DNA from: Tubulanus polymorphus
Taxonomy: Eukaryota; Animalia; Nemertea
Assembly: GCF_964204645.1 (NCBI RefSeq)
Contig: NC_134027.1
Location: 18,252,560-18,316,559, forward strand
Length of the DNA stretch: 64,000 bases
Direction: 5' to 3'
Shown here: positions 1 through 24,669 of the stretch, piece after piece
Numbering within the stretch: the first letter of the stretch is position 1
Layout: every line of letters begins with the position of its first letter
Translations under genes and position numbers: made by a program
Notes under the pieces: model-generated
Database searches by the model: none
What the model was told of the DNA's origin: nothing
What the model saw: the letters and a program-made list of their open reading frames with translations, nothing else

Positions 1-395
1 TCTAATTACAAAAGTAGCAATACTTTGAAAGGTTTAATTGGGATAAGTCCAGCTGGTTGTCTGAATTTTGTGTCGCAACTTTACACGGGGTCAATTTCAG
101 GAGTGGTCTCCTAAAAATGCCATTTGACAGGGGTACCCACTTGGTATCCGATAAACCATTCCACCATTTCTAGGTATGAATAGTCAAATGAATGCCGAAG
201 ATGTGTACAATACACAAGCAATTGCTGCCGAGCGTATATGTTGAGCGGCTGATTAATAAGATTAAAAATTTCCATATATTTGACAGTGTTGTCCCTCTCA
301 CACTTGCTGGTTCGATCAATCAACTATGGTCGAGTTGTGCGCTTCTCACTTTGTTTCAGAACCCAATAATTTCCCAAGAAGTTAAGAAAACCTAA
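1..395 (+). pseudogene. C-terminal part of a Harbinger/ISL2EU-type DDE_Tnp_4 transposase, frameshifted and partly deleted
   Basis: Translates to SNYKSSNTLKGLIGISPAGCLNFVSQLYTGSIS ... IPPFLG..QM..EDV..TQAIAAERI / VERLINKIKNFHIF...INQLW...LTLFQNPII, which are typical DDE_Tnp_4 motifs. The ADRGF segment is missing. Confidence 0.8.
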
Positions 396-558
396 GGCTT
401 ATAATCTGTATTCAACTTTTGTGTATTTCTGTACAAATTGTATATGTCATTTATATGATATTCCATGTTTACAAAATAAATTCGATGAATGATTGATAGA
501 ATAAAATTAGTATTTATACATCATACATGTGTATTGTGTTATTGCGGTAGCAAAAAAT

Positions 559-1393
559 TCAAGCATCATTTGCATCAAACCTATTTTTCACAATATATGG
601 AGCTAGATGAGTTAAATAAAAGATTGAAATTTTATCCAACATTTCATCCCAAAATTGTTGATGAAATGGAATCCTTTGAATTGACATACCCTTCTTGGTG
701 TATATGACAAAATCACGAAAGTCCAAGCCGCATACACCCATTTGTCCTTGAATCTGGCTATAATAATGGTGTGATGTTTTCAATTGTATTTTGCCATCTA
801 TAAGATTACAATAAAATTCCTTTTCTCCTGCGGGTAACATCTTTGAACGAATATGGACATTTTATTTCGAGAAGACCGTAACTCTGGGTATCAGCAACTA
901 TTATCTTCCCATCCGGAGTTGCACCCAGCCAACTGAAAGATCGATTCATCGCTAACCCACATGGTAAAACATCTACATGTTTCCCAGAATTAGCCATATA
1001 GTTTCTATACTTTGACAGAGCAAAAGGTTCATTGTCAATGCCATATTGTATGGCAGCAATGGAACTCAAGTCTTTTTTCGTTATAAGAGATGATAGAAAT
1101 TTCTCTGTTGGAGCTGCTTTTCGATTCAGTACTAAACCAAAATTACTCGCAGTCAGTCTGTACTGTCTTTCGTTGAACCAAAGAGAACTATCTCGCTGCA
1201 TTCTGGTCTCATGTTCCAATTTAATAACATACTGTGGACACGGGTCAATCATGTCGATTAAAGGTTGTAAGTCATTAGAAATATTGCAACTTGGTTTATA
1301 ATCACTTCTTTTCATTGGCATATCAGGAAATATTCTCGGGTTAAAAGGTGTCGACTTTTTGGTTTCAGAAAAACTAACATATACTTCGAAATC
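559..1393 (-). pseudogene. 3' half of a SWIM-YqaJ (lambda-exonuclease-like PD-(D/E)XK) gene of the ISL2EU-type element; frameshift near 830
   Basis: Motifs WFNERQYRLTASNFG, YGIDNE, LGATPDG, LLEIKCPY and YYSQIQGQMGV. The gene is convergent with the transposase. Confidence 0.85.
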
Positions 1394-1791
1394 AGTAATA
1401 GGGATAATAGGCTTTCAGATCAAAGGTCGAAGGGTCGAGCTCGTAAAAAAATGAAAATAACAATAATTTACAGTTAAATTAGTCGCGCACTCTCCTAATT
1501 CAACTGTAAATTATTATTATTTTCATTTTTTACTCACTCGCCCCTTCAACCTTTAACCTGAAAGCCTATTATCCCTATTACTATTAAAATAATCATATAC
1601 ATGAATAACATTTAAATTGACAGATTATTCAATATAAAAGTGTAAGCTCTTATAGAATAGATATATAGATATATTTTAAACATTATTTCAATATTCATAT
1701 TTGTATGAGTTAGATTTTTAAACATTAAAAGTGTTAGTAAAGTGTGATTGAAATAATTCATATTTAAATCATTGAACTTCTAAAATCAATT
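1394..1791 (+). repeat. Left TIR; the outer 189 nt (1394-1582) form an imperfect hairpin
   Basis: Reverse complement of 16964-17356. Internally AGTAATAGGGATAATAGGCTTTCAG pairs with CTGAAAGCCTATTATCCCTATTACT. Confidence 0.95.
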
Positions 1792-1814
1792 TAGTAAAAA
1801 AATATGTATAATAA

Positions 1815-2468
1815 ATAGAATCAGAACAACTACAAACTATCAATATTACAAATAACACTGGTGTCATAAACATATACTACAAGAAGTGTTCTAAATGTGA
1901 AATAGATAAATTAGCTATAACAGAATTTAATAAGCGTAAGATTAGCAAAGATGGTTTTCAATATTGCTGTAAAACTTGTACTAAACTATATACCAAACAA
2001 TATCGAGAAGATAATAGAGAAGCTTTTAATGATTATATGACAGAATATATGAGAGAAAGATATCAAACAGATCTTAATTTTAGATTAAAACAATGTTTAA
2101 GATCTAGATTAACACAATTATTCAACAAAGAAACGCATTCAGAAACACTATCTAATTTATTGGGTTGTTCAGATGAATTTTTCATATCATGGATAATATA
2201 TCAATTCGACGATAAAATGAATATAGATAATTATGGTGAATACTTTCATATTGATCACGTGTTGCCGATTTCTAAATTTAACATGAATGATGAATACAAT
2301 AAAAAACTTATTTGGAATTGGAAGAATTTAAGACCTTTAGAAAAGAAGGAAAATATAATTGAATCTAACAAACTAGATTTACAGTTATATTTAGATCAAT
2401 TGGATAAAGCAAAGACATTTGTTGAATTATGGAATTCAACACATAATGAAAAATACGTTGAAGCTTAA
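1815..2468 (+). CDS. NCLDV-type HNH-like endonuclease with N-terminal CxxC pairs; start codon mutated ATG>ATA at 1815 (ORF track starts at 2037)
   Basis: HIDHVLPISKF...NLRPLEKKENI. Frame is open from 1815 and aligns with the ATG-initiated homologue at 31254-31976 (MESKQPQIINITNN). Confidence 0.75.
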   Translation: MESEQLQTINITNNTGVINIYYKKCSKCEIDKLAITEFNKRKISKDGFQYCCKTCTKLYTKQYREDNREAFNDYMTEYMRERYQTDLNFRLKQCLRSRLTQLFNKETHSETLSNLLGCSDEFFISWIIYQFDDKMNIDNYGEYFHIDHVLPISKFNMNDEYNKKLIWNWKNLRPLEKKENIIESNKLDLQLYLDQLDKAKTFVELWNSTHNEKYVEA

Positions 2469-2850
2469 ACGCTTAGAAAACCGGTTACTCTCGATCTATG
2501 TCAAACCGCCTATATTTAATTGTATTAGGTTGCTTACTACTGAAACATATGTTGCCAAATATATCTTGTTTTCAATTCTAAAGAATTAATTAACTTCATC
2601 ACAAAGGAACATCTGTTACAATCCAGGCAAATATGTGCAGAAATAATTAGTTTGGTCGAACGTGCGCCACGTCGGCAGTTAGAAATCAAATTTCACATAC
2701 ATAGTACGTATTGGATATTCTCTCTCAAAACACAGTTTACAGTTCTAAATCTAAATGTAAGTACCGTTTTTTGTAGTTATTATGAAGTAGGGAAACCTTT
2801 AAACATATTTAAGTACAGTAATTCATTTTCACGACATCTTTTAGATTAAA

Positions 2851-3126
2851 ATGGAATACAGAGATCGACCAGAAATTCCAAGTCAACCATCGGAAGAGGA
2901 TCCAGAAACGATGGATAGTGAAATACAGGAATCAATAGAAATGGAGGATGAAACTCTCGTAATTGACGAACAAACTTCACAAAAATTACAAGAACATTTG
3001 GATTATCATCAAGAAATGGTGAAAATTCTGAGTGATGTAATACATAATAAACAATTACCGCGCGAACTACAATTACCAAAATTACCAGCAACGCGACTTA
3101 AATTGCTGTTGGGAATCGAAAACTAA
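2851..3126 (+). CDS. Acidic hypothetical protein (91 aa)
   Basis: Open ORF starting in TAAAATG. A degenerate, possibly related region lies near 32200-32410. Confidence 0.55.
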   Translation: MEYRDRPEIPSQPSEEDPETMDSEIQESIEMEDETLVIDEQTSQKLQEHLDYHQEMVKILSDVIHNKQLPRELQLPKLPATRLKLLLGIEN

Positions 3127-3130
3127 GAAA

Positions 3131-3310
3131 ATGAGTGGAGATATCAGTGCCGGTTTTGAAAGAAAACTGAGAAGAGTAGGTAGATTAATAAAATATGAAA
3201 AATTCAAAATATTAGGATTAGCATTTAGTGAAGTAGTCAGATATTTACCAGAAATTGAAGAAATGATTGGAAACAATCCAGTAATTAAAGAATTCTTGAC
3301 AAAATTATAA
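3131..3310 (+). CDS. Small hypothetical protein (59 aa, MSGDISAGF...KEFLTKL)
   Basis: Open frame read manually, immediately downstream of the 91-aa ORF. Confidence 0.4.
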   Translation: MSGDISAGFERKLRRVGRLIKYEKFKILGLAFSEVVRYLPEIEEMIGNNPVIKEFLTKL

Positions 3311-3383
3311 ATTATAACACTGAAGGTCTTTGTAATATAGATATCAAAAATGTAATCTCGATTGTATATATCTGTTTTAATAT

Positions 3384-3587
3384 TGTATTGATTACTGTTA
3401 ACTGTGTATTGCGCAATAACCGGTCCGATTGGACCGCTTTTCTATTGTTCTCCATTGTTCTATTATTGATCGTTGTTAACGGCGGCGGTTGTTCTGTATT
3501 GATTGTTTACTGTTAACTAAGTATTGCGCAATAACCGGTCCGATTGAACCGCTTTTCTATTGTTCTCCATTGTTTTATTATCGATCG
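3384..3587. repeat. Two direct copies of a ~90-bp unit about 112 bp apart
   Basis: GTATTGCGCAATAACCGGTCCGATT(G/A)..CCGCTTTTCTATTGTTCTCCATTG occurs twice. Confidence 0.8.
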
Positions 3588-3997
3588 CTAAAATTTGTAT
3601 AATAAATATATGTGTTTATGAAATAGTAATTCCACCAGTCGTTTCTTTGAATTTATTTTGAGTTTGAGGATTTATTATCGAGGATCCGAAATGACTTATC
3701 TGGACAGTTATAATTACTGCTCCTAATAGATAGACAATAGTAGTGAGATATTAAATCCTAATTTAAATAAAATATAATAAAAAAACAATAACTTCAACTG
3801 CTAGTGAATTCTATTATATTTTTAATATTTTCTTTTCAAAAAGAGAATACTTTATATTTTGAATAGATTCAAATAGAAATTTTTTAAATTCAAATAGCTA
3901 GTATCAGTAGTCAATACTAAAATTCTTTAACTTTAACTATCTAGTATCATTTGAAGAATACTTATAATATTTTTCTTATTAAATTTCTCTAATATCA

Positions 3998-4591
3998 ATG
4001 TCAAAGAAATCGAGTAAGAATAGTATTGATATTGAAAAGACATTAGATGATTTGGGTATAAGTGATAATAAAGATACTGTTGTAACTAATTGTGCTCAAG
4101 TTAATTGTAATATAGATTATGAATACTATTTATATTGTAAACACCATCTTGAATTATTAATTGCTGGTGGAAAATCTAAAGAGTTTTTAACTAAGATAAT
4201 TACTTTTCAAGAATTAGATGCTATGAAACCCGTAAAAAAATATTTTAAGATTTATGAAGAAGCTAGATTAGCTAGAATAAATGATTCTATTTCAGATGGT
4301 ATTGTCAAATGTTATTCAAAATTATGTAACCAGTTAATACCAATTAATGATGAAAATGAATTATATAGTGATTTGAAAAATGACTATTTAGTTATGACTG
4401 AATTACAAAAATGGGTTGGTTATGCTTCATTTCAATTAGGATCGGTTATGAAATTAATTTCTACTGGCGTAATAACATTTTCGAACATCAAGCCTATGGA
4501 ATATAAATCAGGTAAGAACGAAACAGATGTACTACAACCAAACGTCGAAACAGAAAATGAATCAGAACAATTAACTAAAATAAATGAGTGA
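3998..4591 (+). CDS. Conserved hypothetical protein of the element (197 aa)
   Basis: Intact ORF. Close homologue at 30385-30990 (-). Confidence 0.75.
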   Translation: MSKKSSKNSIDIEKTLDDLGISDNKDTVVTNCAQVNCNIDYEYYLYCKHHLELLIAGGKSKEFLTKIITFQELDAMKPVKKYFKIYEEARLARINDSISDGIVKCYSKLCNQLIPINDENELYSDLKNDYLVMTELQKWVGYASFQLGSVMKLISTGVITFSNIKPMEYKSGKNETDVLQPNVETENESEQLTKINE

Positions 4592-4952
4592 TAGCGTTAA
4601 GAAAAAGGTTAGATCTGAAAAACAAATTAAACGGGCAAGAGAATTAGGTAAAAGATCTTCAGAATATAAAAATGCTAAGAAAAAGAAATTAACTGATATA
4701 AATGAATCACAGACTTTATCTGATATTAATTCAAATAATAATCCATCTGATTCTTCTAATGCTGGAAGTAATTATAAATTATATATTACAATTGGATTAG
4801 TAACAGTTATTATATTATCTGGTGTAATATATAATTCAAAATTCAAATCTGATGATAAAGATGATTCCAATGACAATAAACCTATCATACCAGAAAATAA
4901 ATCAAATCATAAAGTCATTGAAACTAAATCTAAATTATTATTAATCGATTAA
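4584..4952 (+). CDS. Single-TM protein with a basic N-terminus (122 aa)
   Basis: Hydrophobic segment LYITIGLVTVIILSGVIY. Homologue at 30038-30388. TAAATG start. Confidence 0.75.
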   Translation: MSDSVKKKVRSEKQIKRARELGKRSSEYKNAKKKKLTDINESQTLSDINSNNNPSDSSNAGSNYKLYITIGLVTVIILSGVIYNSKFKSDDKDDSNDNKPIIPENKSNHKVIETKSKLLLID

Positions 4953-4958
4953 AATGAG

Positions 4959-5566
4959 ATGAAAAAAGAACAATATTTAAGAGAGTTATATTATAACCCA
5001 GAAAGTGAAGTATCATATTCTAACGTTTCAGAATTATGGAATAAAATTAAATCTGATAATGAAAATGGTGATATAAAATATAGTGAATTGAAATCATGGT
5101 TACAAAATCAACCAACATATCAAATCCACAAGAAAATGGATAAAACTTATTTAACAAGAAAAGTTATGGTTTCATATATCGATCAACAATGGCAAGCAGA
5201 TTTAATTGACATGAAGAACTTAGAGGAATACAACAAAGGATATTTCTGTATATTAAATGTTATAGACATATTCAGTAGATACGCATGGTCAATTCCAATC
5301 AAAAATAAAACTGGAATAGAAGTAACAAATGCTTTTAAATCTATATTTAAAGAAGCTATTCCAGATAAGATACAATTTGATGAAGGTAAGGAATTTTATA
5401 ACAAACATTTCAAAAAACTATTATCTGATAACGATGTAGACTATTTTTCAACACACTCAGATAAAAAAAGCATCTATTATAGAAAGATTTAATAAAACAT
5501 TGAAAACTAGAATGTGGAAATATTTTACTGCTAATGAAACATACAAATATATCGATGTATAAGATG
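4959..5566 (+). pseudogene. int: Retroviral-like (rve) DDE integrase, frameshifted and truncated
   Basis: QWQADLIDM, DIFSRYAW and FDEGKEFYN, then a frameshift to IIERFNKTLKTRMWKYF. Similarity to copy C ends near 5566. Confidence 0.92.
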
Positions 5567-5601
5567 CATAGAATCTTTATTATCAATATGCTTATCTGTA
5601 A

Positions 5602-6348
5602 CTATATCACCATGTCGGCGCCATTTTCATTATTATCTTTATTAGTGTTTGCTCCTAATATTTCATTTACAATGTTTGATACTAATTTAATAGCATCGGT
5701 TAAATCTAATTCATCTTTATTAGGTGTTGCTAATAATAAATCTTCATGTAATTCTTTACCATTTACTTTTTGATTTGAAACAAACTTTGTAACATATCTA
5801 AATGGGTGTTCTATAAATTCTTTTAAACCAACACGTTCTATAACATTATTTATATGTACCCTTGTATTCATATGTTTATTCCAATTTGATGGAACGTTTG
5901 AATATCCACCTTTACAATATCCACAATAATTTCTATTTTCACTAACATTTAATATTATTTCATTATTTGATGTAGAAGGTATTACATTATTAGATGTAGA
6001 AGGTATTACATTATTAGATGTAGAGGGTATTACATTATTAGATGTAGAAGGTATTACATTATTAGATGTAGTAGGTATTACATTATTAGATGTAGTAGGT
6101 ATTACATTATTAGATGTAGAAGGTATTACATTATTAGATGTAGAAGGTATTACATTATTATCAATTACATTACTTAAATTATCAACAACACCACTTTTAT
6201 TATTATCGATTTCTATTAGTTTAGTTTTATAAATTTTGAAAATAGGATCAAATATCAAAGCTATATTACAAGGTATTACATAATATAAACCATCATTATT
6301 TTCATGTGTATCGATGTATGGAATATGTTTATATACTTTACCTCCCAT
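5602..6348 (-). CDS. Variable-slot protein with an 8-aa repeat (NNVIPSTS)x8 and a C2H2-like Zn finger
   Basis: 24-bp tandem repeat at ~5965-6160; CGYC...WNKHMNTRVH; TAAATG start. Confidence 0.7.
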   Translation of the reverse strand: MGGKVYKHIPYIDTHENNDGLYYVIPCNIALIFDPIFKIYKTKLIEIDNNKSGVVDNLSNVIDNNVIPSTSNNVIPSTSNNVIPTTSNNVIPTTSNNVIPSTSNNVIPSTSNNVIPSTSNNVIPSTSNNEIILNVSENRNYCGYCKGGYSNVPSNWNKHMNTRVHINNVIERVGLKEFIEHPFRYVTKFVSNQKVNGKELHEDLLLATPNKDELDLTDAIKLVSNIVNEILGANTNKDNNENGADMVI

Positions 6349-6380
6349 TTATTATATAAATTTTAATTAAAGTTAAAATG

Positions 6381-7581
6381 TTAATACGTTACACTATTCA
6401 ATTGAGAATTTACAATATTTAATTGCGCGTCAGATATAATATAAATATGCATTTTGAAATTTAGGCTTCCTTTTTTCTTTGTCATGAATAATTGTATTCC
6501 ATCTTTAGTGTTTTTTAATTTTTTTCCAGAACCATGTAATGAATTATCCTCTGTTGTTCTAAAATCTAACCATAATGCATATTTATTGCCGGTATAATAA
6601 TCAATTTGATTAATATTACAATTTTCAGATGATTTTACTTTTTCATTCATAAAATGTTTTCTAATTTCTGGCCACTGATCTATCATTCTCATTCCTTGAC
6701 AAAATATTTTATTTGCTATTCCTTCGATAATTATTTCTACTTTTGTTATTTCAGGATTATAATACTTATCAACATTTATTGCGCCATTAGTATATGTTGT
6801 TAATATTCTCATTAATTATTTCATCATTTGCATTAATAGTTACAGTTTTAAATTTATCAATATAATCATATAATAATGAAAATCCTTGATTGTATTTAGT
6901 TTGAATTATACTTGAAATATTTTCATCAGTTACTGTATCATATTCTAAACATATATTCGATAATTTATAACTCATATCTTTATTAACGCTAGATATTACA
7001 ATTTCATTTACAGGAGCAAATGTAATTTCGAATATAACGTCTTCTTGAATTGCATATTTATATAAAGGTGCATTATTATTTATCAATTCAAAGTCTAATG
7101 GAATTTTATATTTGCTTCCATATATACCTTTTATCAATTTTTCTATAGCATTAGTTAATATTGCATTATGCGCTTCTGATCTTAATTTATTTTGGTTTTC
7201 TGATTGGATTCCTTGAAATATCATATTATTTCTGTTTTCTTTAGTTAACCATAAATCTTTATAATGCATGAATAAATTATAATCATCTAATGAGAAAACT
7301 GTTTCTGGTCCAATCTTTATAGTTAATTTTTTAATGAAATATCTTCCAACATTATCAACAACATAATTATTATTATTACCAATTACTTTTATATCGGCTG
7401 ATAAATAAATACTATTTGGAACATAAAAAGTATTTTGTGTTAATCGAGGGATTCTAACATATAAAGTTTCATCGGGATTAATATTAGAAGGGTTATGAGT
7501 AATTATATGATGTGATCTTTCTGCTTTAATAACATTAGATATTCTATGATTCTTAGAAGGATTGATATAACTCCCACTCAT
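6381..7581 (-). pseudogene. MCP: Major capsid protein (double jelly-roll inferred), split by a ~45-nt deletion near 6795
   Basis: ITHNPSNINPDETLYVRIPRL, NVGRYFIKKL, LSNICLEYD, KYALWLDFRT.EDNSLHGSG and IISDAQLNI resemble invertebrate PLV/adintovirus capsids. The copy at 49415-50658 retains the deleted FPRRSIK segment. Confidence 0.8.
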
Positions 7582-9024
7582 TTATTTAACAAAAAAATTA
7601 ATTAAAATAATTGCACTTACAACTGTAATTAAAAATAAAATAATATGTTCAGCAGCAAAGTTAATAATGTTTCCTGCAGATTTCAGTATAAAACCAACAA
7701 TTGATGCAATAATTCCTGTTAATGCTGCAGCAGATTTTTTAGATAGTTCCCATAAATATTTTGCTAATTTCTTTAAACCATCCTTAACTCTATCTTGTAT
7801 TGAATTATTATCATTCGGGGGTTTATCCGGTTTATTGGGAGTAGGAGTAGATTTCAAAGCATTTGATATTGCTAAACCAATTGTTGTAAATAACATAGTT
7901 ACAGCTGTTAGAATTGAAAGAATTGTTATTCCTTCAAACTTAAATAATAATTTTATTCTATCTTTTAGTGATATGTCAGAATTTGGTTTTAGTATTAACT
8001 CTTTAACAACAACTTTTAATCTATTAATACAATAATCATATGATTTTAACAATAATTTCATTTTTTCTTTCTGAAATTCTATGTTATATTCTAAATCATC
8101 AATTTCTTTTTCTAAATATGCATTTCTTTTTTTAAATTCAATTTCTTCAATAACTTTAAATTCTCTATCTAATTTTAATTGTTCTAATTCTTTTCTGGTG
8201 TCAAATAATTTATTTTCTAAAGGTTTAATTTTATTATATCTAATATGTTTTTCGCGCGCAATTTTATCGGCTTCATCTCGTATACTTATTATTTCTCTAA
8301 TTGTTTTTTTAGAAAACATACTTAAAGCTTCTATTTCTTGATCTGTTGAATCAAGTAATCCCTTCGGTAAAAGTTTTTCAGTTTGAACTTCAGTGTTTGA
8401 TTTAAGTTTACTAGTTTTGGAAGTTTTATTCTGTTCAGAAGTTGTTTCTGTTTCTGGATTATCTTTGATTGTTTCAAATAATTTATTAATTCTTTGTTTA
8501 ATTACTTTTTCATTTTTACCAATTAATTCTTGTGTTACATCTTCTGGTTCACTACTATTTCTTATTCTATTAATTTTAGATAGGTCTAACCTAAGCGAAG
8601 TTGATTTTGCTAATATTTTGTCTTGAATTTTATAAGAGATGTTAATATAATAATCATCTTTCAATTTATAATAATATTCACCATCTAAAAACTTTAATTC
8701 TTTTACTAAAAGTCTGGCGCCTCTATCATTTATATTATATCCAGAATCTTTAAATACACGTTGAAAATCATACATAAATTCATAATTTTCTATATTTTCT
8801 CTTTCTAAATCTGGATTTAAATTTTCAGTAGGTATTCTCGATCTAGTTCTTCTATCATATTTCTCTGTTGATGGGACTTTAGAACCACTATCTGCTAAAT
8901 TAGAATTATATGTTGTATCATTATCAATATTAGTATCAGCAGTCATATAATCATCATCGTTAGTATTGGCATCATTATTATTTCCCATGTTTTCCATTTC
9001 ATAATCTTCTCCACCTTCTGCCAT
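7582..9024 (-). CDS. 480-aa coiled-coil protein with C-terminal hydrophobic/amphipathic helices (putative virion membrane protein)
   Basis: Acidic N-terminus, long coiled coil, GITILSILTAVTMLFTTIGLAI and GIIASIVGFIL...IILFLITVVSAII. Homologue at 47978-49395. Confidence 0.8.
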   Translation of the reverse strand: MAEGGEDYEMENMGNNNDANTNDDDYMTADTNIDNDTTYNSNLADSGSKVPSTEKYDRRTRSRIPTENLNPDLERENIENYEFMYDFQRVFKDSGYNINDRGARLLVKELKFLDGEYYYKLKDDYYINISYKIQDKILAKSTSLRLDLSKINRIRNSSEPEDVTQELIGKNEKVIKQRINKLFETIKDNPETETTSEQNKTSKTSKLKSNTEVQTEKLLPKGLLDSTDQEIEALSMFSKKTIREIISIRDEADKIAREKHIRYNKIKPLENKLFDTRKELEQLKLDREFKVIEEIEFKKRNAYLEKEIDDLEYNIEFQKEKMKLLLKSYDYCINRLKVVVKELILKPNSDISLKDRIKLLFKFEGITILSILTAVTMLFTTIGLAISNALKSTPTPNKPDKPPNDNNSIQDRVKDGLKKLAKYLWELSKKSAAALTGIIASIVGFILKSAGNIINFAAEHIILFLITVVSAIILINFFVK

Positions 9025-9047
9025 TTACATAATAAAAAAATTAAAAT

Positions 9048-10340
9048 TTAAAATATAATATTCCTCCTATTACAAATTCCTATACAAGTTATAGCTAATT
9101 TAGTATTTTCATGGGATTTATTATCATCATTTAGTTTAATTATTTCATGTTGAATAATATCAGTTTTAATATTTTCTGATGTATTATAATCCGGTTTAGA
9201 ATCATTATTTAATTTAATATTCATAGTTTTAGTTTCTGTTGATTGAATATGTTTTTTATTTTTTTCACCTTCCATTAATTTTGGAGCAGTAATAATCTTT
9301 TTATTTATATCATTCAATCCAAATGAATTATTTATTGTTGCAGTTTTAATTAGATTATTATAACCAATTATATTTCCCATCTTTAATACTAAATCATTAG
9401 AAATAATAAATAGATTAGGGCCTATACAATGATTTAATCTAATATGTGATTTATCTAAATAATTTTTATATCTTACAATGTTTTCCGGAATCGATCTATT
9501 TTTATCATTATGAATTGAATCTTCAAATAATGCTTTGAATTGTTTCTGCGCATCGAATGAAGTGTTATCATTTCCAACTATTGGGGCTCTTGTTTCAACT
9601 TGCGCACCTAAAATACATATCAAATAAGTTCTAATAGATTGATTTATTCTTTGTATACCTGATTTTGTAAAACCTTCACCATTTTCTAAAATGAAATTAA
9701 CCCAACCATTATTATTATCAATTTTATAATTATGATTAGCTCCAATTCTATGCATATAATCAATTCTTTTTATTTCATACTCTTCACCAACACCTTGCAA
9801 TTTACCATGCGCTCTAAAATCGGAATTAATATTTATATTAAATTCATTACATATTTTATAAAACTTAGATAGATTAATATTATTATCCAATTCTTTAAAA
9901 TATTTAGACCCGGGTAAAGGACATTCTAATTCATTTAATATTATTCTGATTTGAAAATATGTGTGAAATCTAAATATTGTGTGAATTAATTTTAAATCAG
10001 AATACTTCAAATTTTTATCTAAGTTATTTAAATGATCATTCCAACTTATTCCACATCCTGTTGTTGCACAATAAACAGCAAAATTTAATTGATTCTGCCA
10101 ATATTTCATATTAGATTTTACTTTATATATATGGTATTCATCTCGAGTAAAAGTAACTTCATATGTATTAAATATATTTTCCATTTTAGAAATAAAAAAC
10201 TGTGATTCAGTAACATAAATTTCTAAATTAGTTAATGAATTTAAAACTACATTTTTATATGTAATATTTTTTTTAAAATCTATTGCAGGAATATTATATT
10301 TAATTGATTTATTATATTGGAAAGCTTTTAGAAACCCCAT
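9048..10340 (-). CDS. Conserved hypothetical PLV protein (430 aa)
   Basis: YWQNQLNFAVYCATTGCGIS. Homologue at 42058-43190 continuing at 47746-47940. Confidence 0.8.
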   Translation of the reverse strand: MGFLKAFQYNKSIKYNIPAIDFKKNITYKNVVLNSLTNLEIYVTESQFFISKMENIFNTYEVTFTRDEYHIYKVKSNMKYWQNQLNFAVYCATTGCGISWNDHLNNLDKNLKYSDLKLIHTIFRFHTYFQIRIILNELECPLPGSKYFKELDNNINLSKFYKICNEFNININSDFRAHGKLQGVGEEYEIKRIDYMHRIGANHNYKIDNNNGWVNFILENGEGFTKSGIQRINQSIRTYLICILGAQVETRAPIVGNDNTSFDAQKQFKALFEDSIHNDKNRSIPENIVRYKNYLDKSHIRLNHCIGPNLFIISNDLVLKMGNIIGYNNLIKTATINNSFGLNDINKKIITAPKLMEGEKNKKHIQSTETKTMNIKLNNDSKPDYNTSENIKTDIIQHEIIKLNDDNKSHENTKLAITCIGICNRRNIIF

Positions 10341-10359
10341 TTATATAATTAAAAAATTG

Positions 10360-10781
10360 ATAATTTATTAATTCTTTTTATAATTTATCCTGTTCTTCAA
10401 CTCTTATATGACCATTTAAATTTATTATATAATTTGATGTATTTTTTAATTCATTAATTTCTTTTATATTAGATTTAATTTTTTCTTTATTACTTTTAAA
10501 GTTTAATTTTGAACTTATACCAGTTAAAACACTTGAACTCAACCCTTGCACACCAATTGATATAGCTAAAGGTGTTAATGGACTGAATATTGCTAAAAAT
10601 GTTATTACAGAACTAATTGTAACTGAACCACTGAAAATAAAATATACATAATTTTACTTTTTAAATATTTTTTCTTTTTTATCTTTAAGTCACTTTCAAA
10701 TTCTAATATTAGTTTTTCTAAATATGTTTTTGATTTAGTTTTATTTATATCATGAGGAATAATATCAATATTATCATCCAT
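10360..10781 (-). pseudogene. Frameshifted protein with hydrophobic segments (~140 aa)
   Basis: MDDNIDIIPHDINK... then, in a shifted frame, SVTISSVITFLAIFSPLTPLAISIGVQG. Homologue at 41608-42040. Confidence 0.65.
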
Positions 10782-10799
10782 TTATTTAGCAAAAAATTA

Positions 10800-11222
10800 C
10801 TAATTAGTAAACTTATACGCTACAAATATAACAATAACAGTTCCGCCTAAAATCCAAATTGTTTCATATTTCTTCTGTTTATTACTTGGGGTATAATAAT
10901 CTGATATTGTAGGTTTATGTAGATGTAATTTTTCTTTATTGGTTACCGCGTTATATAAACTCATTGCATCATCAACTGATTGAAAATCTCTATGTGAAAT
11001 CTTCTGATCATATAATTCCTTGTTAATATAATCCATATAGTTTTGCCTCTTTTCTCTGTATTCTTCTGCTGCTTTATTGTATTTCTCTAATGCTAAGTTA
11101 TGTCTTTTTTGTTCTGTTAATGATCCATTTTTATCAATATGCTTAAATAAATAACCACCACCAGTAAATGCTAAAGCGTTAACAATTGCTGATCCTATAA
11201 TAGTTATAATTGCAGAAGCCAT
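10800..11222 (-). CDS. 140-aa protein with hydrophobic N- and C-termini
   Basis: MASAIITIIGSAIVNALAFTGGGYLF...EQKRHNLALEKY. Homologues at 26176 and 41166. Confidence 0.8.
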   Translation of the reverse strand: MASAIITIIGSAIVNALAFTGGGYLFKHIDKNGSLTEQKRHNLALEKYNKAAEEYREKRQNYMDYINKELYDQKISHRDFQSVDDAMSLYNAVTNKEKLHLHKPTISDYYTPSNKQKKYETIWILGGTVIVIFVAYKFTN

Positions 11223-11247
11223 TTATTTAGTAAAATAATTACACATT

Positions 11248-11412
11248 TATATGGGGGGAATATATTTTTGTTTTTCTAAATAATCAATAGTTAAATTAGA
11301 TTACACTTCCCATTTTAAATACTTTTTTTAATACCATTGAATAACCAACAGTTCCAACTGATAGTAATGCTCCATTATATAATCCAGTTATTATCCACTT
11401 ATTATCACTCAT
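11248..11412 (-). pseudogene. Small hydrophobic protein with an internal deletion
   Basis: MSDNKWIITGLYNGALLSVG... An intact 73-aa homologue is at 40920-41141. Confidence 0.7.
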
Positions 11413-11754
11413 TTATTTATCAAAAAAATTACTATCTTCAAAATATTTAGTTAACTTATTTATGATTATTTCAACATTTATTTCATTACTACTTTTATGA
11501 TTATCATATATTTTGATTAATTTGTTTTTAATATCATCAATAATTCCATCTTCATTGAATTCATAATATTCTAAAGGTGATTTAATTAAATCAATAACTT
11601 TTTTTATATTATAATTTTCTTTTTTAATCATTGATGCATTGTTAAATGATTTAATTTTTATATCAGTAATTACATCATTTCGTTTAATTCTCATTTCTTT
11701 ACCATGTTTAAAATCAAACCCAAAACATATACTCGGCCCAACAGTTATATTCAT
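11413..11754 (-). CDS. Hypothetical protein (113 aa)
   Basis: Intact ORF with TAAATG start. Homologue at 25668-25970. Confidence 0.7.
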   Translation of the reverse strand: MNITVGPSICFGFDFKHGKEMRIKRNDVITDIKIKSFNNASMIKKENYNIKKVIDLIKSPLEYYEFNEDGIIDDIKNKLIKIYDNHKSSNEINVEIIINKLTKYFEDSNFFDK

Positions 11755-11779
11755 TTATATAGTGAAAAAATTACTCTCT

Positions 11780-12512
11780 TCATCTTATAACTAATTCATA
11801 AATTACAGGGAAATTATTTAAATCAATTAAGTATCCATTATGATTTCTAATTTCTAATCTAAAATTATTAAAACGAGGAATGCATGGTTTGAAATCACAT
11901 TCTGTTAAATTATGATTTATTTGCGTTCCAAATTCTTTAACATTCTTCAATGGTAAAATGTTTAGTAAACCAGAATTACAAGTTATATCTTTAGTTGCTT
12001 CGAATGTTTTTGTAGGATCGATTAAATTGCAATAAATATAAAAGTGTGTAAAAGGCATTATATTTGGTGTAGCATCAGCATTGCGTATCCTTACATCTGG
12101 GGTTATTCCTAAAATTTTAGCTAGAAATTGATGTTGATCTTCATTACCTAATTTTATTCTTATTTTATCGGAGCTATCACTTTTAATCAGTCTTAATCCA
12201 AATCCAGCAGATGCACCCATTTTCAACCGAGCTCTTCTATTAATTTCCTGCGCTAATGTATCTAAATTATATAATCCTGGTTTAAGATAAAGATGAAACC
12301 ATTTACTTTTATTTCTATCATGAATTAAAAAGACTATGTTCAATAGTTTTATCCGATACATTGTAAAAAGAATTACATAAACTTATATTAACTAATTTGA
12401 AATCTACACAATTCTTTAATTCTCTATCTAATTGAACTAGTAAATTATGAGATTTATAATTTGTAAGTTTTCTAGAATCTACAAATATTCTGTATTCTTT
12501 TAATTCTACCAT
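11780..12512 (-). pseudogene. mCP: Minor capsid protein (penton, single jelly-roll inferred), one frameshift
   Basis: IFVDSR, NSFYNVS, LKPGLYNL, FYIYCNLID and FRLEIRNHNGYLIDLNNFPVIYELVI follow the Polinton penton pattern. Confidence 0.8.
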
Positions 12513-12530
12513 TTATTTTACATATTTTCT

Positions 12531-12884
12531 TATTCGAAATCTATTTCATGGTGCCCTTTTTCATTCTTACCTTTGTATACAAAAATAGAAATCACCAGAA
12601 CATAATTCTTCTAAGTCTTCACTTGATAATCTATGAAATCTATCCGGTAAATATGTTCTGAATTTATATTTATTTCCTTTTAATCCTTCATATTCTAAGT
12701 GTATAACTAATTTATCTCCATATTTGTTAGTAACTGTGTCAATATGTGTAATTAGATATTTCTTATGGATTATTAATTCTTTTAACTTCTTAAATTTATA
12801 ATCTACTGATTTGACATTTGAAGTATCTTTTATTCTATCTAGAAATGATTTGTTGTTCTCACTGTGCGCTTGTTTACTCTCCAT
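12531..12884 (-). CDS. Small Polinton protein, possibly an OB-fold ssDNA-binding protein; 3' frameshift
   Basis: VTNKYGDKLVIHL...TYLPDRF. Adjacent to pPolB. Homologue at 20470-20800. The fold assignment is inference. Confidence 0.55.
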
Positions 12885-12913
12885 TTATAATACATATTTT
12901 TATTAAAATTTGA

Positions 12914-15900
12914 TTAACACGTTAGAATTCTTTTCATTATCTCGTTCTCTTTTGTTTCTTCTCTTTTAAATTTTAAGTATTCATCTAAATTACAACCTAA
13001 AGCAACTGTATGAATTCCATCATCTAAAATATATCTTTTATCATCAAATGGGTTTAGACTTATCTTTTCAATTAATTCAATAAACATTTCATGATCTTCA
13101 GATCTTAAACATCTCATCTTATGTTTTCTAACTTCTTCATTGAATATACAATTGTAATGTAATCTTTGAAATGGATATTCTTTTCTACTACACTTTTGGT
13201 TATTCCTTTTAACTTTTTAGCTTCATGTTCTTTAGTTTTATATGAATACATTTGAGATCTAATACCGATGAACTCAATCATTTCTTCACCACCTAATTCA
13301 TCTTTGAATTTACCGGGAACTTTTTTATTATCATTGCTAAATAATTCATGATCTTTAGGATAATTACTAAAATCAAAATGATGTTTTAATGTTTTTAAAT
13401 CATCAGTTATGTTATCAGTTTTTATCTTTAATATGTAAGAATCTGTATCAAAGTATAGAATTTCTATATGTTTTTCTCCAAAAAGTGGTTGTAATACATT
13501 ATAATAGAATTCATACATTAGTAATTTTGATAATTCTAAAACTAAAGCGCCAACATAGATTGGTTTATTAAATTTCATTGATGTTCTTCTCATCTTAACT
13601 GCAGCTAAATTTTCTTCAAATATTCTGTTACCAATGAACTTAGGATATGTTTGTAAATGTATAATTCTTTTACCATTACTAACTAACTCAATATCATTTC
13701 TATTTCTAATATTTTCACAAGTCTTACCGTAGAATGCATTATTCATTAACTTGAAGAAATCTTTTTCGAAATCAGTTTTAGCTTCAGTTCTCTGTTTGGT
13801 GTTAAAATCTATATATTTTTCTAACCACTTAGATTGACTAAATGAAATATATCTATGTACTTTTTTTAGAACCATTCCTTGATTCAAATAAAACTTTAAC
13901 ATTCTATAATGTACTACATAATTATATTTATCTTCTTGAGTTACCATTAACTTTTCTGTATGAATATGATTTTCGGGTTTAATTCTTTTTTGATAATTTG
14001 ATAATTCTTCATGAGTTACAGTTTTATGTTCGGGACAGTATGCTAGATTTCTAGATTTAAATTTAATATGTTCAGGATATTCTAAATCTACAACAAAGAA
14101 CTAACCAGTATCTGAATCATCTGCAATATCTAGAATTCTTTTCTTCCAATAAAATTTATCATTATTTTCATTCTGTAAAACTTCAGTTAATTCAGATACT
14201 CCATAAGGTTGTGGTTCCATCATTGCCCAACCATACAAATTATTTGCATCTATATATAATAACTTATATCCAGGGTTATCGTTTACATTGAAATATCTAC
14301 CTAATACACCTGAAACTCCTCCTCTTATAGATTTTTCAAATAATAATAATTGATCTATATTTGTTAACAAATCCATTTTTATATCTGTAAATTTTAATCC
14401 ACAATCCCATGTTAAACCTGGTGATGAATAACAATGACAAGGATCAATATTGAAATATTTTAGGTTTACATCTCTAAACCTTTCGAATATATCCGATAAT
14501 AATAATACATCTGATTTTAAATATAAATCTACTAATTGCCCATGATTTTCTATTTTGAAATGATTCCAAATATTCAATGTTCTATTATATACTTCATCTC
14601 TAACATATTCATGTTTTAATTCATCATAGAATTGTTCTTTCAATAATTCAGTTATGTTAAAATCATTATGATTTTTACAGAAAGAATATGGAATTGCTCC
14701 TTTATATCTCATTAATTGAAAATCATCATTATTTGGATAGTGTTGTTTTAATATTTTTAATTCATCATCCACTAATGATTTTGATAAGTTATCTAATGAA
14801 CTATTTAAAAATCTATATGAATCTATAAATCTTAGGCAACCAAATTGGAATGAAATATAATTCTCAGATGTTTTAGCTAACATTCTAAATTTATAAGTTG
14901 GTATTTTATCTTTTGATCTATTTGAATTTAATCTTTCTATTTCATTATTAATTTCTTCTATTTTATGACATAACTGTTTGATGAATAAATGTGCATCATA
15001 TCCTGATAGATTATGAAATATAACTTGTAACAAAATTAATTTTCTTAGCTTGTAAGTTACAATTCTCATGCGCGGCGCCTCTAAACTTTCCATTCAAATG
15101 ATCATGGTCTCTTACTTTTTTATCGTTATAATTAAATATCTTTTCACAATAATAACATTTATCTGCAAACTCAAATGCTTCTTTATCTTCTTCTGTCATT
15201 ATAATTTCTATATTTGTATTCAATAATTTACTAAATCTTATTTCATATTCAATTAATAAGTCACAAAAATGATTGATAACATTTTCATTTCTATAATCAT
15301 AATATTCACTTTCAATTAGTTCTGGGTAATCAGATTTTATATATAACCCGAAAGCTGCGGCTGATTGATGAATCTTTTTAATTGTATTTGTTATTGGCGG
15401 TTCATCTGAAAAATCATTTTCATTAGAATTTAATTTCTTTCCTTTATAATATATTTCTTTTCTATCTTGATCAGTTAATTCTTTATTTAATGATTCAAAA
15501 TCTCCATATATTACAAATGGTACTTTATTTTTGTAATCATATTTTTTTAATTCTATTATTTTATCCTTTTCATTTGGTAAAACTAATTTACAATAATCAT
15601 GATTTTCACATAATTGTTTATGATTTAATAATGTACTTTCATTACTGAATTTATGTAAACATTTTCTACATAGATATATTTTATTATGGTGATCACTTTC
15701 TGTTCTAAAGAATAAATCTATTTGTTTAATCCACATATAATGATTCTCATAATATAATATCTATAACATCATTTGAATCATAATCTTTTGATAGATATAA
15801 AGGTTCTAATGTATAATGTTTTATGTTGTTACCTTTTGTATTTGGTAATTTGATTAAATCAAATACATTTATCTTTATATTATTATCTCTTTCTATTTTT

Positions 15901-16941
15901 GGGATGTTTTTAATTATAACAGGATACTTATCTATCTTATAATTATTTTCAAATGGTTTATAATGAGTTAATCTACAAATATTATAAGTTGCAGGATGTA
16001 AACAACTTATTATAGCCCATAGAAAACATTTATCATCAGAATTTTGTACATTTATAACAGCATTAGTTTTAAATGGTAGTTTAATATAACAATAATTCAA
16101 TATCTGGTTCTTTATAATATGATACATTATTTTCATCAATTGGTTTTGATTTAGTTAACTTATTATATTTTGTGTTATAAACATGTAAAGTCATAAATAT
16201 TATTTCATCAAATATTAACCAGATCCTTCAAAATATTTCTCTTCTATTTTAGTTTTTACTTCATTATAACATTTATCTAATTTATCATCTATATGTTGTT
16301 TAGATATAATATGTTGTGAATGAGAATTTATATTATATATTGGTATATCTTCAGATTTTGTGAATTTAACTTTTGATGAAATACTTATTTTAGGATATTC
16401 AACATCAGTTATTATTTTTATTATTTCTTTCATATTTTCTAAATGTTTTTTTATTTTCTTCTAATGTTTTTCCTTTATGAAATTTAAACTCGATAGCTGC
16501 TGGGCCAATATCACTTTTAAATGCTTCGGTTATCTCTATATCTTTTTTATTATCAAATGAATTAATATATTTTCTTACATATTCCATGTATGGTCTTTTA
16601 TTGTTTAATTTATTTTTTATGCTTTTAATTGTCTTCTGTTTCTTATCATTATCTTTATCAAAATAATCTTAACCTAAAATATCATTATTCTTATTTCTAA
16701 TATGACTTTTAGATTTTAAATGTTCTTTATAATATCTTTTATCACTGAATGATTGATTACATGTATCACATTTGTATGTTTCTTTTTCATTCTTTAATTC
16801 ATCTAATTTAGTTTCTAATATATCATCTTTATATTCTAGTTTCAATTTATTCTCTAAATGTGTTTTAGTTTTATTGTGTCTTGCTTTTTTGGATTTATCT
16901 ATATTGATATTACATGTTGGGCAGTACTTATTTGCTTCCAT
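12914..16941 (-). pseudogene. polB: Protein-primed family B DNA polymerase with N-terminal Zn fingers and an EndoVII-like insert; multiple frameshifts
   Basis: NSDDKCFLWAI, YGDFES (ExoI), VRDHDHLNGKFRGAAHENCN, FHNLSGYDAH (ExoII), YLKSDVLLL (ExoIII), YIDANNLYGWAM (A), KLMNNAFYGKT (B), YFDTDS (C) and SLNPFDDKRY. Confidence 0.95.
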
Positions 16942-16963
16942 TTTAATACTAATTTTTTTTTTT

Positions 16964-17356
16964 AATTGATTTTAGAAGTTCAATGATTTATATCATGTAT
17001 TATTTCAATCACACTTTACTTACACTTTTAATGTTGAAAAATCTAACTCATACAAATATGAATATTGAAATAATGTTGTAAATATATCTATATATCTATT
17101 CTATAAGAGCTTACACTTTTATATTGAATAACATTTAAATGTTATTCATGTATATGATTATTTTAAGAGTAATAGGGATAATAGGCTTTCAGGTTAAAGG
17201 TTGAAGGGGCGAGTGAGTAAAAAATGAAAATAACAATAATTTACAGTTGAATTAGGAGTGTGCGCGACTAATTCAACTGTAAATTATTGTTATTTTCATT
17301 TTTTTACGAGCTCGACCGTTCGACCTTTGATCTGAAAGCCTATTATCCCTATTACT
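16964..17356 (-). repeat. Right TIR; terminal hairpin at 17168-17356
   Basis: Reverse complement of the left TIR, with about 4 mismatches in the 189-nt hairpin part. Confidence 0.95.
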
Positions 17357-18520
17357 GAAATCACCTTCAGTGTAGCTTAACGTAATAGCTTAGTACGCTA
17401 CCAACTGGTACCATACAGTTTAATTTTGTTGGACCTAAATTGCACGTATTATTGTAATACTTGACAAAAACCAAGGGAAGGGTTAATAGCATGTAGATCA
17501 TTATATAGGGCTTCAGCACATTCTTGGGATTGTGGCTTTGCCCTAGCATCATACAAAGTAGATTTGATGCCACTTATATTAGCGCCATATTCAGATCTGA
17601 CTACCTTGGCATCCATAATTGGCTGGGCTGATATCCCTGCAGTCCTAGGCCTATGCCACTGCTGTAGATTGTCAGTGCACGTGCCCTTTTCTGGAAAATG
17701 CTTTAACTGGATCTTAAGACAGTGATCTATCAGATAGAGCAGGGCAACAACATGGTTACAGTAGCCACTGGCTCCTGCAGCACAGCTGCACTGTGCAGCT
17801 TCTACATTGTCATCACTGAAAATTATCATAACTGAATGTGGCGTTTCATTTTTCTTTTGACTCCTGTAGCATTTACACTTCACATAACATAGATCACCCT
17901 TTAAAACATTATTCACAGAATGAACATAATTTTCGTAAAAATATTTGTATCCTTTCTGCAACGATTTTTCTATATATTCTCCACCTTTGACATTACGCCC
18001 TGACTTTTTTACATGATCACATAAGTTTATGTAAGAAAAGTTCTTGTTAACTTTAATAGCCTTTTCATATCCTGAAGTTGGTGCCATTGCCAGTAAATCT
18101 GAACTCAGATGACTTGAAGTCGGAGTGATCACCATCATTTACATTTTTGCATTTTTGAACGTGTATAGCACTTCGATGGGTCAGGATCGACAATTTCATG
18201 TGACTGGGGCATTAAATGCCTAAATCTGAAAACAATTAAAAATATACTATTAAGCTAAGGTTATGTCACCTGAATATTCAACAATAAATCCGTCAAAAAC
18301 GAACAACAAATCATAAACAAGAAATGAGAAAAGTACTGGCCTCATTTCACTCAAATCCAATTTATTGTAGAAAACCAAAAATAGGCCTACCTGTCGACCA
18401 GAACTGCTTTAGTGTCTGTACTTTTATATTTTAGCTTTCGACATTTCATCCAGAATTGCAGCTCAGTCTTTTTGCATTTAGATGGAGATTTATTTAACAC
18501 AGCTCCAGGGATAATAGTAA
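17357..18520 (-). pseudogene. 5' half of the SWIM-YqaJ gene, probably with an intron at ~18226-18390 and a SAP-like upstream exon
   Basis: SWIM motif AQCSCAAGASGYCNHVVALLY and TCTDNLQQWHRPR. Removing copy A and one TSD gives TEGDF|EVYVSFSETKKSTPFNPRIFPDMPMKRS, in frame with the 806-1321 ORF. Confidence 0.85.
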
Positions 18521-20134
18521 ATGCAATATGGTAATAACATTGGGATAATATAATGGGTGACCATATACAAGGAGAAATACTCACATTACACAGATCGCAG
18601 TAGCTTGTAGCAAGACTAAGAGAAAGACTCTTGTCCGAACTCAATGCCGATGAAGCCATCCAATCAGAATCACGAATCAGTCGAAAACGATTGATACTGA
18701 AAAAAATTACATTGGATAGCTTAAGAAGAGAGTTAAATTCCATCAGATAAACAATGGAGTTATATATACAAATAGCAGCTGAATGAGCAGCTCTACGCGC
18801 TCTATTATTCACACACACAAACTACTAACGTCAATTGTGCACAATTTCAAAGACAGTTTCAATGGCTAAATATTCCTTTTCAACCAGGCTTATATTAGTA
18901 AGACTCAACAGATATATACTTTGTTTGTTTTAACTTACCTTTCATCGATATTCGTGTAATAGTCGTTGAGATATAACGGACAATTTTCGGCTCTAAAACG
19001 TGTAGTCTAACAATTAAAAATTACTTCCGGGTTTTTGATTCTCCACCATGCACGCGCACCTGCCGCTACGCGGCGCTAGTTTCTGGAGTTATGTATAGAG
19101 ATTTGATTATTAAAATAAATTAAATATGAAATGTACGATAAATTATTTTTTATTAGTAATTGATTGATTGGTGCCACTGTTTTTGTTTCGGGTTCTTCAA
19201 AATAAGCCCCTGGAACCACCTCTGAAATTCTTGTTGGAATTACCCCCTCCCTATACCCCTCCCCCAAGTGGTAGCCCAAGAGCGGTAGGAGCTTGCTGAG
19301 AGGTTGTTAACGGATCATTAGACAAAACAATCATTCTGACAAAATCATCTTGACAAAACAAAACATTGACAAATTGCATTCAATTGACGCTTGCTCAACG
19401 GAAACACGTTCTTTCGGTTGACAGGGACTCGAACCCGATCGCACCGCTTCAACAGATACGTCATTGATGACGTATTCGTATGGCGACGTCAATGCCGCCA
19501 TGACACCTCGGACCCACGTCTAGGAAATAGGTCTAAACTATGTGATCGTGCGGGAACGCCTTTACTAAAGTTAAAACCATTTCATGATGACACGAAACAT
19601 CAAACGGTAAACGTTAGGCTACCACCATGATACGATATCACCAATAAAGATAGATCATTTTATTCAATTTTACCAGAGTTGTTTATTGGAGGAAAATATC
19701 GTTGTTAAGTACGCCGAGAACAACCATGTTGTATCATCAATCAGTTGATTCACCAAGAACCTTAGTGTCTGATGTTACACAGGATCGTAGAGCAACGTAG
19801 ATACTCTGTGGAGACAGCCACACTGCCAGGACTGGGTGAATCAGTTGGCTGACATTGTAAAATTCGATTCGCCTATATTCTAATATACATTTTCACTTTA
19901 TGACGCCCTACCCGCCTTCTGCACACTCAAGTTCAAGTTCAACTCATAAGGCGGTATCACCCTCGTACGCACTCGGCAGAGACTCGCTTTGTAATGCGCG
20001 CCGGAAAAAATACCTTTTATTATCTTTTCCATGCGTTAAACAACAGTGATTGTATTTACGCGTTGTTTGTCGTAAATTGCAATATTGCGATGGTTATTTG
20101 CCGCTGCTGTAGTTTTTTGGAATTGAATCGAGCG

Positions 20135-24433: not shown

Positions 24434-24669
24434 TAACTGAAGAGGTAATTCTAGAAATGCAGTGTGATTGTGCGGTTGGCCAGGGCCCCACCGCCCATTG
24501 TAAACATGTCGGCTGTGTTTTGTTTGGGCTTACCTGCTTTAGTAAAGACGGAACAATTCTAACAGCACTCACATGCACTCAGGTATGATCTAAATTCTAA
24601 TGATAGTGATTTGAATTTGAGCAACTCGACTCTTCCATCATATTTATGTTTTATACTATCTATTTTTCA

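Follow-up and report, generated by a model that had tools for sequence, protein, structure and literature searches.

Whose RNA polymerase reads the genes of a capsid-encoding element that resides in an animal chromosome? This question is raised by a 64,000-nucleotide stretch of the Tubulanus polymorphus (Nemertea) genome (NCBI RefSeq assembly GCF_964204645.1, contig NC_134027.1, forward-strand positions 18,252,560 to 18,316,559; hereafter, the window). An initial annotation described the element at positions 1394–17356 (copy 1) as a candidate virophage-like Polinton that depends on a pox/asfar-like cytoplasmic virus. Copy 1 is a Polinton, integrated in the manner of rve-type elements (with a 6-bp duplication), and it combines a double jelly roll (DJR) capsid, a start-site signature and co-varying ends. 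Judging from the sequence, we hold with slightly better than even confidence that a co-infecting cytoplasmic virus of the pox/asfar type (Pokkesviricetes-like) lends its RNA polymerase to these genes, as a helper does for a virophage.

The pox-like TAAATG start contexts reported in the initial annotation are borne out. TAAATG occupies 11 of the 15 identifiable gene starts of copy 1, including ten successive minus-strand starts (12884 to 6348). The starts that lack it lie at 2851, 3998, 4959 and 16941, and two of these read TAAAATG.

To place copy 1 among its relatives, we used homologs of the major capsid protein (MCP; 79 at E ≤ 1e-5 among 533 candidates, 3153 representatives at E 0.001) and fetched 68 metagenome loci, in which only open reading frames (ORFs) with an N-terminus aligned to a homolog were counted. 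An MCP tree (quick method, 49 rows, midpoint root) separates a window side from a sister clade at its root (SH-aLRT 100). The counts exclude near-duplicate loci (L002, L013, L014 and L039) as well as any locus lacking a 250-aa MCP ORF. On the window side, 43 of 57 checked starts in 18 non-duplicate loci are TAAATG starts, against 3.3 expected from the composition of the 40 nt upstream, and 15 of the 18 loci carry the motif. In the sister clade, handled in the same way, it is found at none of 54 starts from 12 loci. The initial annotation had proposed asking whether the motif exceeds what AT-rich Mavericks would show in general; within this family, the 13 sister-clade starts with an upstream AT content of at least 78% all lack it, so AT-richness does not explain TAAATG. 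The signature also holds at higher GC (L006 at 44% GC, 3/3; L041 at 36% GC, 4/4), in lineages that span 20–44% GC. The motif doubles as the stop codon of an abutting gene in only 2 of 43 cases; our ORF rule leans toward stop-adjacent ATGs and was identical for the sister clade.

TAAATG is preceded by a second conserved feature. Thymine accounts for 145 of 215 positions (67%) at −15 to −11, compared with 337 of 860 (39%) at −40 to −21, which places a T block 7 nt upstream of TAAATG. Poxvirus late promoters consist of a T-rich core, 5–7 bp and TAAAT(G/A), and the African swine fever virus (ASFV) late promoter of TATTT at −15 to −11 plus TATATA (PMC5294985, in part; here and below, ‘in part’ marks a source of which a portion was available). 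The layout of T block, 7-nt spacer and TAAATG fits the poxvirus late promoter and is close to that of ASFV, the comparison being with published consensus sequences rather than with the promoters of a known helper. In this sense, the element shares its promoter motif with large DNA viruses, as virophages do. The putative promoter signature is strong, does not depend on base composition and is specific to a lineage. Its simplest reading would be recognition by a pox-type RNA polymerase from outside the element. Dependence on the postulated helper is an inference from this signature.

Three other arguments that the initial annotation offered for a pox-like helper do not bear on the question. The absence of an RNA polymerase carries no weight, since to our knowledge no Polinton is expected to encode one. 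An adenain-like protease is indeed missing (no Pfam match, and nothing from two protease queries over the window and all 72 loci), but Polinton-3_NV, N1_NV and non-TAAATG relatives are also protease-less. Several membrane proteins were correctly noted (membrane-type hydrophobic segments occur in four copy 1 proteins), but these are common to the non-TAAATG clade. All three traits occur across the family and are neutral.

TAAATG also occurs in a more distant element. Locus L072 (positions 1–9034, from IMG/VR) encodes a related protein-primed family B polymerase (pPolB) and integrase. Its ATPase is distant, and its integrase has a protease-like domain joined to the N-terminus. Seven of its nine ORFs start with TAAATG, which makes it a second lineage with this promoter style, and its integrase clusters with those of the TAAATG set, although a long branch calls for caution there. 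Because L072 shares TAAATG despite a different ATPase/virion module, the trait may track a common compartment and not a single capsid lineage.

The ends of copy 1 provide a second point of comparison with poxviruses. The element spans 15,963 bp between direct 6-bp target site duplications (TSDs; plus strand, 1388–1393 and 17357–17362, with the same letters). Its terminal inverted repeats (TIRs; 1394–1833 on the plus strand, 16924–17356 on the minus strand) are about 440 bp long and 93% alike. Long TIRs, a 5′-AG start and a TSD within the 5–8 bp range are the ends of a Polinton/Maverick. The outer 189 nt of the TIR (1394–1582 and 17168–17356) form an imperfect palindrome that folds as one long mismatched hairpin (−77.8 kcal/mol, z −22.7, 0/200 shuffles as good). 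The ends thus carry the mismatched inverted repeat of a poxvirus-type telomere, and this part of the initial annotation is confirmed. The two isomers that it reported do not both occur in copy 1. Both ends show the same isomer, which recurs at the termini at 32988, 37482 and 58067; the flipped isomer is found only at a second-copy terminus that ends at the loop (24359–24431, plus strand; the reverse complement of the copy-3 type). The ratio among the six window termini is therefore 5:1, with the flipped isomer resting on that single truncated terminus. Raw reads over 1546–1700 (920 outer-type and 878 host-junction) are unphased, and the same counts would be expected under one isomer or a 1:1 mixture.

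Comparison of the termini indicates that the palindrome arms behave as a structure, as in poxvirus telomeres (PMC8956199, in part), which counts in favor of a pox-type helper. An orphan palindrome (37482–37670, plus strand) differs from copy 1 at 10 positions; four of these form two compensatory pairs and two more turn G-T into G-C. In the shorter third-copy palindrome (32988–33124, plus strand), both arms have paired changes as well as deletions that are symmetric, and the mismatch patch persists. In four termini (for example, 17168–17356), the fold-back is 8–11 kcal/mol stabler on the strand with its 3′ end at the terminus, because several arm differences make G-T pairs there; in a fifth the difference is 1.6 kcal/mol. 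Just inward of the right terminal hairpin, at 17127–17150, is a perfect palindrome of 24 bp that contains TAAATG; the left TIR has an insertion at that place. The sister-clade loci that apparently reach a terminus, L033 and L036, both start with short AGT repeats and have no long terminal palindrome. None of the loci of TAAATG-class relatives extends to a terminus.

The initial annotation also described inverted repeats at the convergent gene junction. Copy 1 has none, its junction having been deleted, and they are found in neighboring copies: the third copy has a long hairpin downstream of its ATPase gene (about 27790–28080), and another fragment has two at its ATPase junction (55812–56144, comprising 55812–55915 and 56029–56144; z −9.2 and −15.0). 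Hairpins occur where the ATPase gene converges on a variable gene in L001, L002, L005 and two window copies. Their sequences are mutually unrelated, with z scores of −8.5 (L001), −11.6 (L005), −9.2 and −15.0 (window copies); a partial slice gave −4.0. At the other gene junctions that were sampled, in L033, L037 and L060, there is no hairpin (z 0.1, 0.8 and 0.4). The recurrence of unrelated hairpins at one place suggests a 3′ end signal.

Several observations weigh against a pox-type helper. First, the helper is postulated from element sequences, and a cytoplasmic virus would have to reach a nuclear provirus; the integrase of a relative carries a chromodomain, which is nuclear-type. Second, three window-side loci lack TAAATG (L026, 0/2; L027, 0/6; L049, 0/2; 0/10 together), so the trait is not strictly clade-wide, and orthologous genes of related loci contribute non-independent counts. 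Third, codon-shuffle tests do not tell the two classes apart: they do not differ significantly in AATAAA avoidance (observed/expected 0.98 versus 0.88), both under-represent TTTTTNT (0.52 versus 0.67), and CpG does not separate them. Fourth, the junction hairpins are not a pox-type signal and are lacking at the junction sampled in TAAATG-class L060 (z 0.4). Finally, inspection by eye (rather than a formal scan) revealed no T6-N7-9-TAAAT resolution site beside the terminal palindrome, and terminal palindromes of virophage and Polinton-like virus (PLV) TIRs have been reported without a link to poxviruses (bioRxiv 10.64898/2026.07.28.741278, in part).

A more far-reaching version of the helper reading is possible, and we offer it tentatively. 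Copy 1 would belong to a widespread endogenous animal virophage lineage that parasitizes an undiscovered poxvirus-like invertebrate virus and mimics both its late promoters and its mismatched telomeres. The integrated end would be a concatemer junction, which a Holliday resolvase (the helper’s, or the EndoVII domain of the element’s own polymerase) could cut to free a hairpin-ended genome, and TAAATG would mark hosts that have the helper. Poxvirus telomeres exist in flip and flop forms and undergo cruciform resolution (PMC8956199, in part). The EndoVII insertion also occurs in the pPolB of sister-clade L036 and is known from nematode and oomycete pPolB2 (bioRxiv 10.1101/2023.08.22.554363, in part).

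Alternatively, copy 1 could be an ordinary nuclear Polinton transcribed by host RNA polymerase II (Pol II). TAAATG would then be an initiator peculiar to the lineage or the host, or a stop codon retained in frame ahead of the ATG, and the palindromes would serve only replication or integrase recognition. Such an element would be expected to be integrated at high copy, as read depth and junction reads indicate for this one, and to have a chromodomain integrase; moreover, the sister clade has nearly the same genes, lacks the motif and is presumably Pol II-transcribed, and a helper virus is so far only postulated. We nevertheless regard this explanation as somewhat unlikely. A T block at a fixed distance from TAAATG is promoter-like, not translation-like. 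The usual eukaryotic start context has a purine at −3, and the A-rich sister-clade starts have A at this position in 67% of cases, in contrast to the T of TAAATG. The motif also extends through deep lineages at 20–44% GC and into an element with a different virion module.

The helper might also be a cytoplasmic linear plasmid whose polymerase is related to that of poxviruses, or some other nucleocytovirus of the cytoplasm, with initiators of the TAAA type and 3′ ends set by hairpins. In yeast virus-like elements, the initiator is TAAAN and the 3′ ends form at stem-loops (PMC6211774, in part), and Mimiviridae polyadenylate at hairpins (PMC4402537, in part). The unrelated long hairpins at one junction in L001, L005 and the window copies would be consistent with such a system; their placement suggests that they are closer, by analogy, to yeast-plasmid or Mimiviridae 3′ signals than to pox signals. 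The start signature speaks otherwise. The reviewed late motifs of mimivirus, CroV, chloroviruses, iridoviruses and ascoviruses are other than TAAATG (PMC5294985, in part), and the T-block spacing best fits poxviruses and ASFV, making a helper of this kind improbable.

Finally, an unrecognized transcription factor or polymerase of the element itself, acting without a helper, is very improbable: one candidate, a 430-aa protein, is conserved, has invariant Gln and Cys residues and lacks a fold match, but the clade that lacks the motif conserves it just as well, and its mostly helical predicted structure with a hydrophobic C-terminal helix is unlike a polymerase.

This 430-aa family-wide protein (9048–10340, minus strand, TAAATG start) has 110 homologs and invariant residues Q84, C91 and C96. 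The fold of the protein was predicted with pLDDT 81. It has no PDB sequence match and no Foldseek viral match below E 0.001 (BFVD); its best VIA score is Z 4.6 over 66 residues, and Atlas scores fall below 0.8. A papain-like reading of its Gln and Cys residues found no support. We propose it as a candidate new virion protein.

Under the favored reading, in which a pox/asfar-type virus transcribes the genes, the provirus would stay inactive until the cell is infected by a helper. At that point, intact members of the family would be excised and copied by their own pPolB, with replication likely passing through the fold-back ends. Expression would proceed from helper-type late or intermediate promoters, the junction hairpins would end convergent transcripts, and genomes would be packaged in the element’s own capsid.

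Copy 1 belongs to a large family of insertions. It is the only copy in the window with both ends, and fragments of at least four further copies are 84–91% identical to it. The element has a GC content of 21–30%, compared with about 33–43% in the flanks. Raw read depth over the element is about 800–900 versus 14–19 in the flank (from a run with the same species label), and 1569 raw reads pass position 1394 into varied DNA, which together imply a high-copy family with many insertion sites. The surrounding DNA is transposon-rich. Remnants of YqaJ/SWIM-encoding DNA transposons (1–1393, 17357–18821 and 24430–25585) house the copies, and copy 1 interrupts one of them. A 31-bp tandem array (about 44 copies, 45085–46448) and a 153-bp array (43897–44495), both within 43561–46638, separate two halves of one copy (40780–43191 and 47813–50655). 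The host DNA has a CpG observed/expected ratio of 0.85–0.98, which is compatible with an invertebrate, and 63 short host-side frames yielded a single weak Pfam match.

Capsid, polymerase, integrase and ATPase genes were all recovered across copies, as the initial annotation stated, by their domains and by the DJR fold. The minus strand of copy 1 includes a split MCP gene (6381–7581), recognized by homolog search, the fold of an intact relative (predicted DJR, pLDDT 90) and a match to the Polinton-3_NV MCP. A split gene at 11780–12512 (TAAATG start) likely encodes the minor capsid (penton) protein mCP; a PDB profile search gave no match, and the assignment rests on a by-eye fit to a published PX alignment. 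A32 ATPase genes are present in the window only at 28127–28732 and 56170–56574, both outside copy 1; the former lies with the integrase gene of the third copy (28127–30029, minus strand; PF04665, E 5.5e-9), genes that copy 1 lacks or retains only in part. The set of DJR MCP, penton and A32 ATPase is thus complete for the family, with the ATPase drawn from neighboring copies and the penton assigned by eye only. pPolB (12917–16668, minus strand, in several frames; PF03175, E 2.7e-13) and the rve integrase (4959–5565, plus strand; PF00665, E 1.6e-9) are both present in copy 1 and together define a Polinton/Maverick. The pPolB carries an EndoVII (HNH) insertion (PF02945, E 2.2e-5), and its N-terminal region retains an N-x-D-x-x-C motif similar to one in the vOTU domain (PMC11161782, in part), so protein priming is probably retained.

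The remaining minus-strand genes of copy 1, all with TAAATG starts except the last, encode a variable protein with a 24-bp repeat array (5602–6348), a 480-aa protein with three hydrophobic segments at its C-terminus (7582–9024), a split small membrane protein (10360–10781; weak SLATT-like match in a relative), a 140-aa conserved protein with hydrophobic N- and C-terminal segments (10800–11222), a split conserved hydrophobic protein of about 75 aa (11250–11412), 113-aa and 105-aa ORFs (11413–11754 and 12567–12884) and a double C2H2 zinc-finger ORF (16669–16941). The plus strand encodes an HNH-like endonuclease with a decayed 5′ end (1815–2468; weak HNH_4 match, E 0.024; 42% to an HNH-family ORF of L001), a small acidic ORF without a family match (2851–3126), a conserved family protein of about 200 aa without a family name (3998–4591; 60–70% to close relatives, 25% to L033) and a small protein with one hydrophobic segment and a TAAATG start (4584–4952). 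Two 92-bp repeats at 3381–3587 are direct rather than inverted. A close relative additionally has a gene for a deoxynucleoside kinase (L003, 10340–10981; PF01712, E 1.7e-31), which starts with TAAATG; such kinases are encoded more typically by large DNA viruses.

Compared with the proteins of intact relatives, copy 1 is defective: the ATPase gene is gone, the integrase is split and lacks its C-terminal half, and the MCP, mCP and pPolB genes are split. It therefore cannot be autonomous, and could be mobile only if complemented in trans.

The capsid belongs, by its sequence, to the protease-less Polinton-3_NV kind. The MCP shares 49 of the first 110 aligned residues (about 44%, no gaps, counted by eye) with the published row for Polinton-3_NV (P3_NV) of Nematostella vectensis (PMC4028283 supplement 4), and Polinton-3_NV, N1_NV, N1A_NV and N1B_NV are listed as protease-negative (PMC4028283 supplement 1). 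P3_NV-type MCPs fall outside the mavpol clade and adjoin those of PgVV and the entomopoxvirus-associated AHEV_PLV2 and Ca_PLV1, and the related PLV capsid lineage includes elements from entomopoxvirus occlusion bodies (PMC11296320, in part), a further point in favor of a pox-type helper. On the by-eye match, copy 1 may likewise lie outside mavpol, our tree containing no reference MCPs. Cnidarian MCPs outside the main cluster (PMC10120064, in part) and Octocorallia, Hydrozoa and Bivalvia ATPases among Aquintoviruses (bioRxiv 10.64898/2026.06.19.733378, in part) have also been reported. The MCP is not of the virophage type, as those of Sputnik and Mavirus rank 46 and 50 in a structure comparison at 8–11% identity. 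The protease that characterizes Virophaviricetes and Polintoviricetes groups 1 and 2 (adintoviruses) was not found with Pfam or the two protease queries. IMG/VR scans with the MCP, ATPase, 430-aa protein and TIR pattern returned no match, and the pPolB scan returned three loci. Twenty homologous proteins that we looked up had no names or taxa, and the Atlas gave generic viral clusters only. A sister-clade Polinton fragment (L069, 1–4602) lies on a contig filed under an archaeal metagenome-assembled genome and is most likely mis-binned eukaryotic DNA.

Each of the closest known systems matches copy 1 in part. Polinton-3_NV and N1_NV share its PLV-type, PgVV-related MCP, its pPolB and rve integrase and its lack of a protease, at a similar length (16.6 kb versus 16.0 kb here), but the published accounts, available in part, mention no helper dependence, promoter motif or terminal palindrome for this group. 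The entomopoxvirus PLVs (AHEV_PLV1/2, CBEV_PLV1 and Ca_PLV1) are likewise small, have a DJR capsid and are proposed poxvirus parasites, and the AHEV_PLV2 and Ca_PLV1 MCPs branch beside Polinton-3_NV (PMC11296320, in part). In contrast to copy 1, they are described in the available accounts as having an adenovirus-type protease and a tyrosine recombinase or no integrase in place of rve, and they were physically found with their helper. The main text of PMC11296320 contains neither ‘promoter’ nor ‘TAAAT’, and the promoters of these PLVs are thus unanalyzed there. Mavirus/EMALE virophages and Gezel-14T also combine pPolB with rve-based host integration, and Mavirus has helper-type late promoters; according to partial sources, they differ in MCP class (Mavirus at rank 50), protist hosts and Mimiviridae helpers with a TCTA motif.

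Poxviruses themselves, in the partial sources, share the T-rich core, the 5–7 nt spacer, TAAATG at the start codon, and mismatched inverted repeats; of their two isomers, the flipped one is seen here at a single truncated terminus. Unlike a poxvirus telomere, the palindrome here is an extended duplex flanked by a target duplication and is known from integrated copies. Halocafeteria virophages and PLVs have TIR-end palindromes beside the TSD that are proposed replication primers (bioRxiv 10.64898/2026.07.28.741278, in part), but these are 52 nt long in the subtype shown and mostly accompany non-pPolB replicases, compared with a mismatched palindrome of 189 nt and a pPolB here. The capsid family, poxvirus-associated PLVs and terminal palindromes are therefore each already known singly. 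What appears to be new is the promoter split inside one animal Polinton family. We found no published report of pox-type promoters in the P3_NV clade, in a search that excluded subscription journals and bioRxiv supplements, and, among the matches listed, the sole TAAATG item concerned freshwater virophages.

Animal Polintons may be nuclear viruses that are autonomous, or virophages that depend on a helper, and the literature surveyed shows no Polinton virion or helper beyond co-sequencing with entomopoxviruses. The family described here contains, within one capsid family, a pox-type branch and a branch with A-rich starts, and so provides a built-in control. If the favored reading is true, unknown pox-like viruses would infect the hosts of these elements, and an inducible Mavirus-like provirus would reside in what is probably an animal genome.

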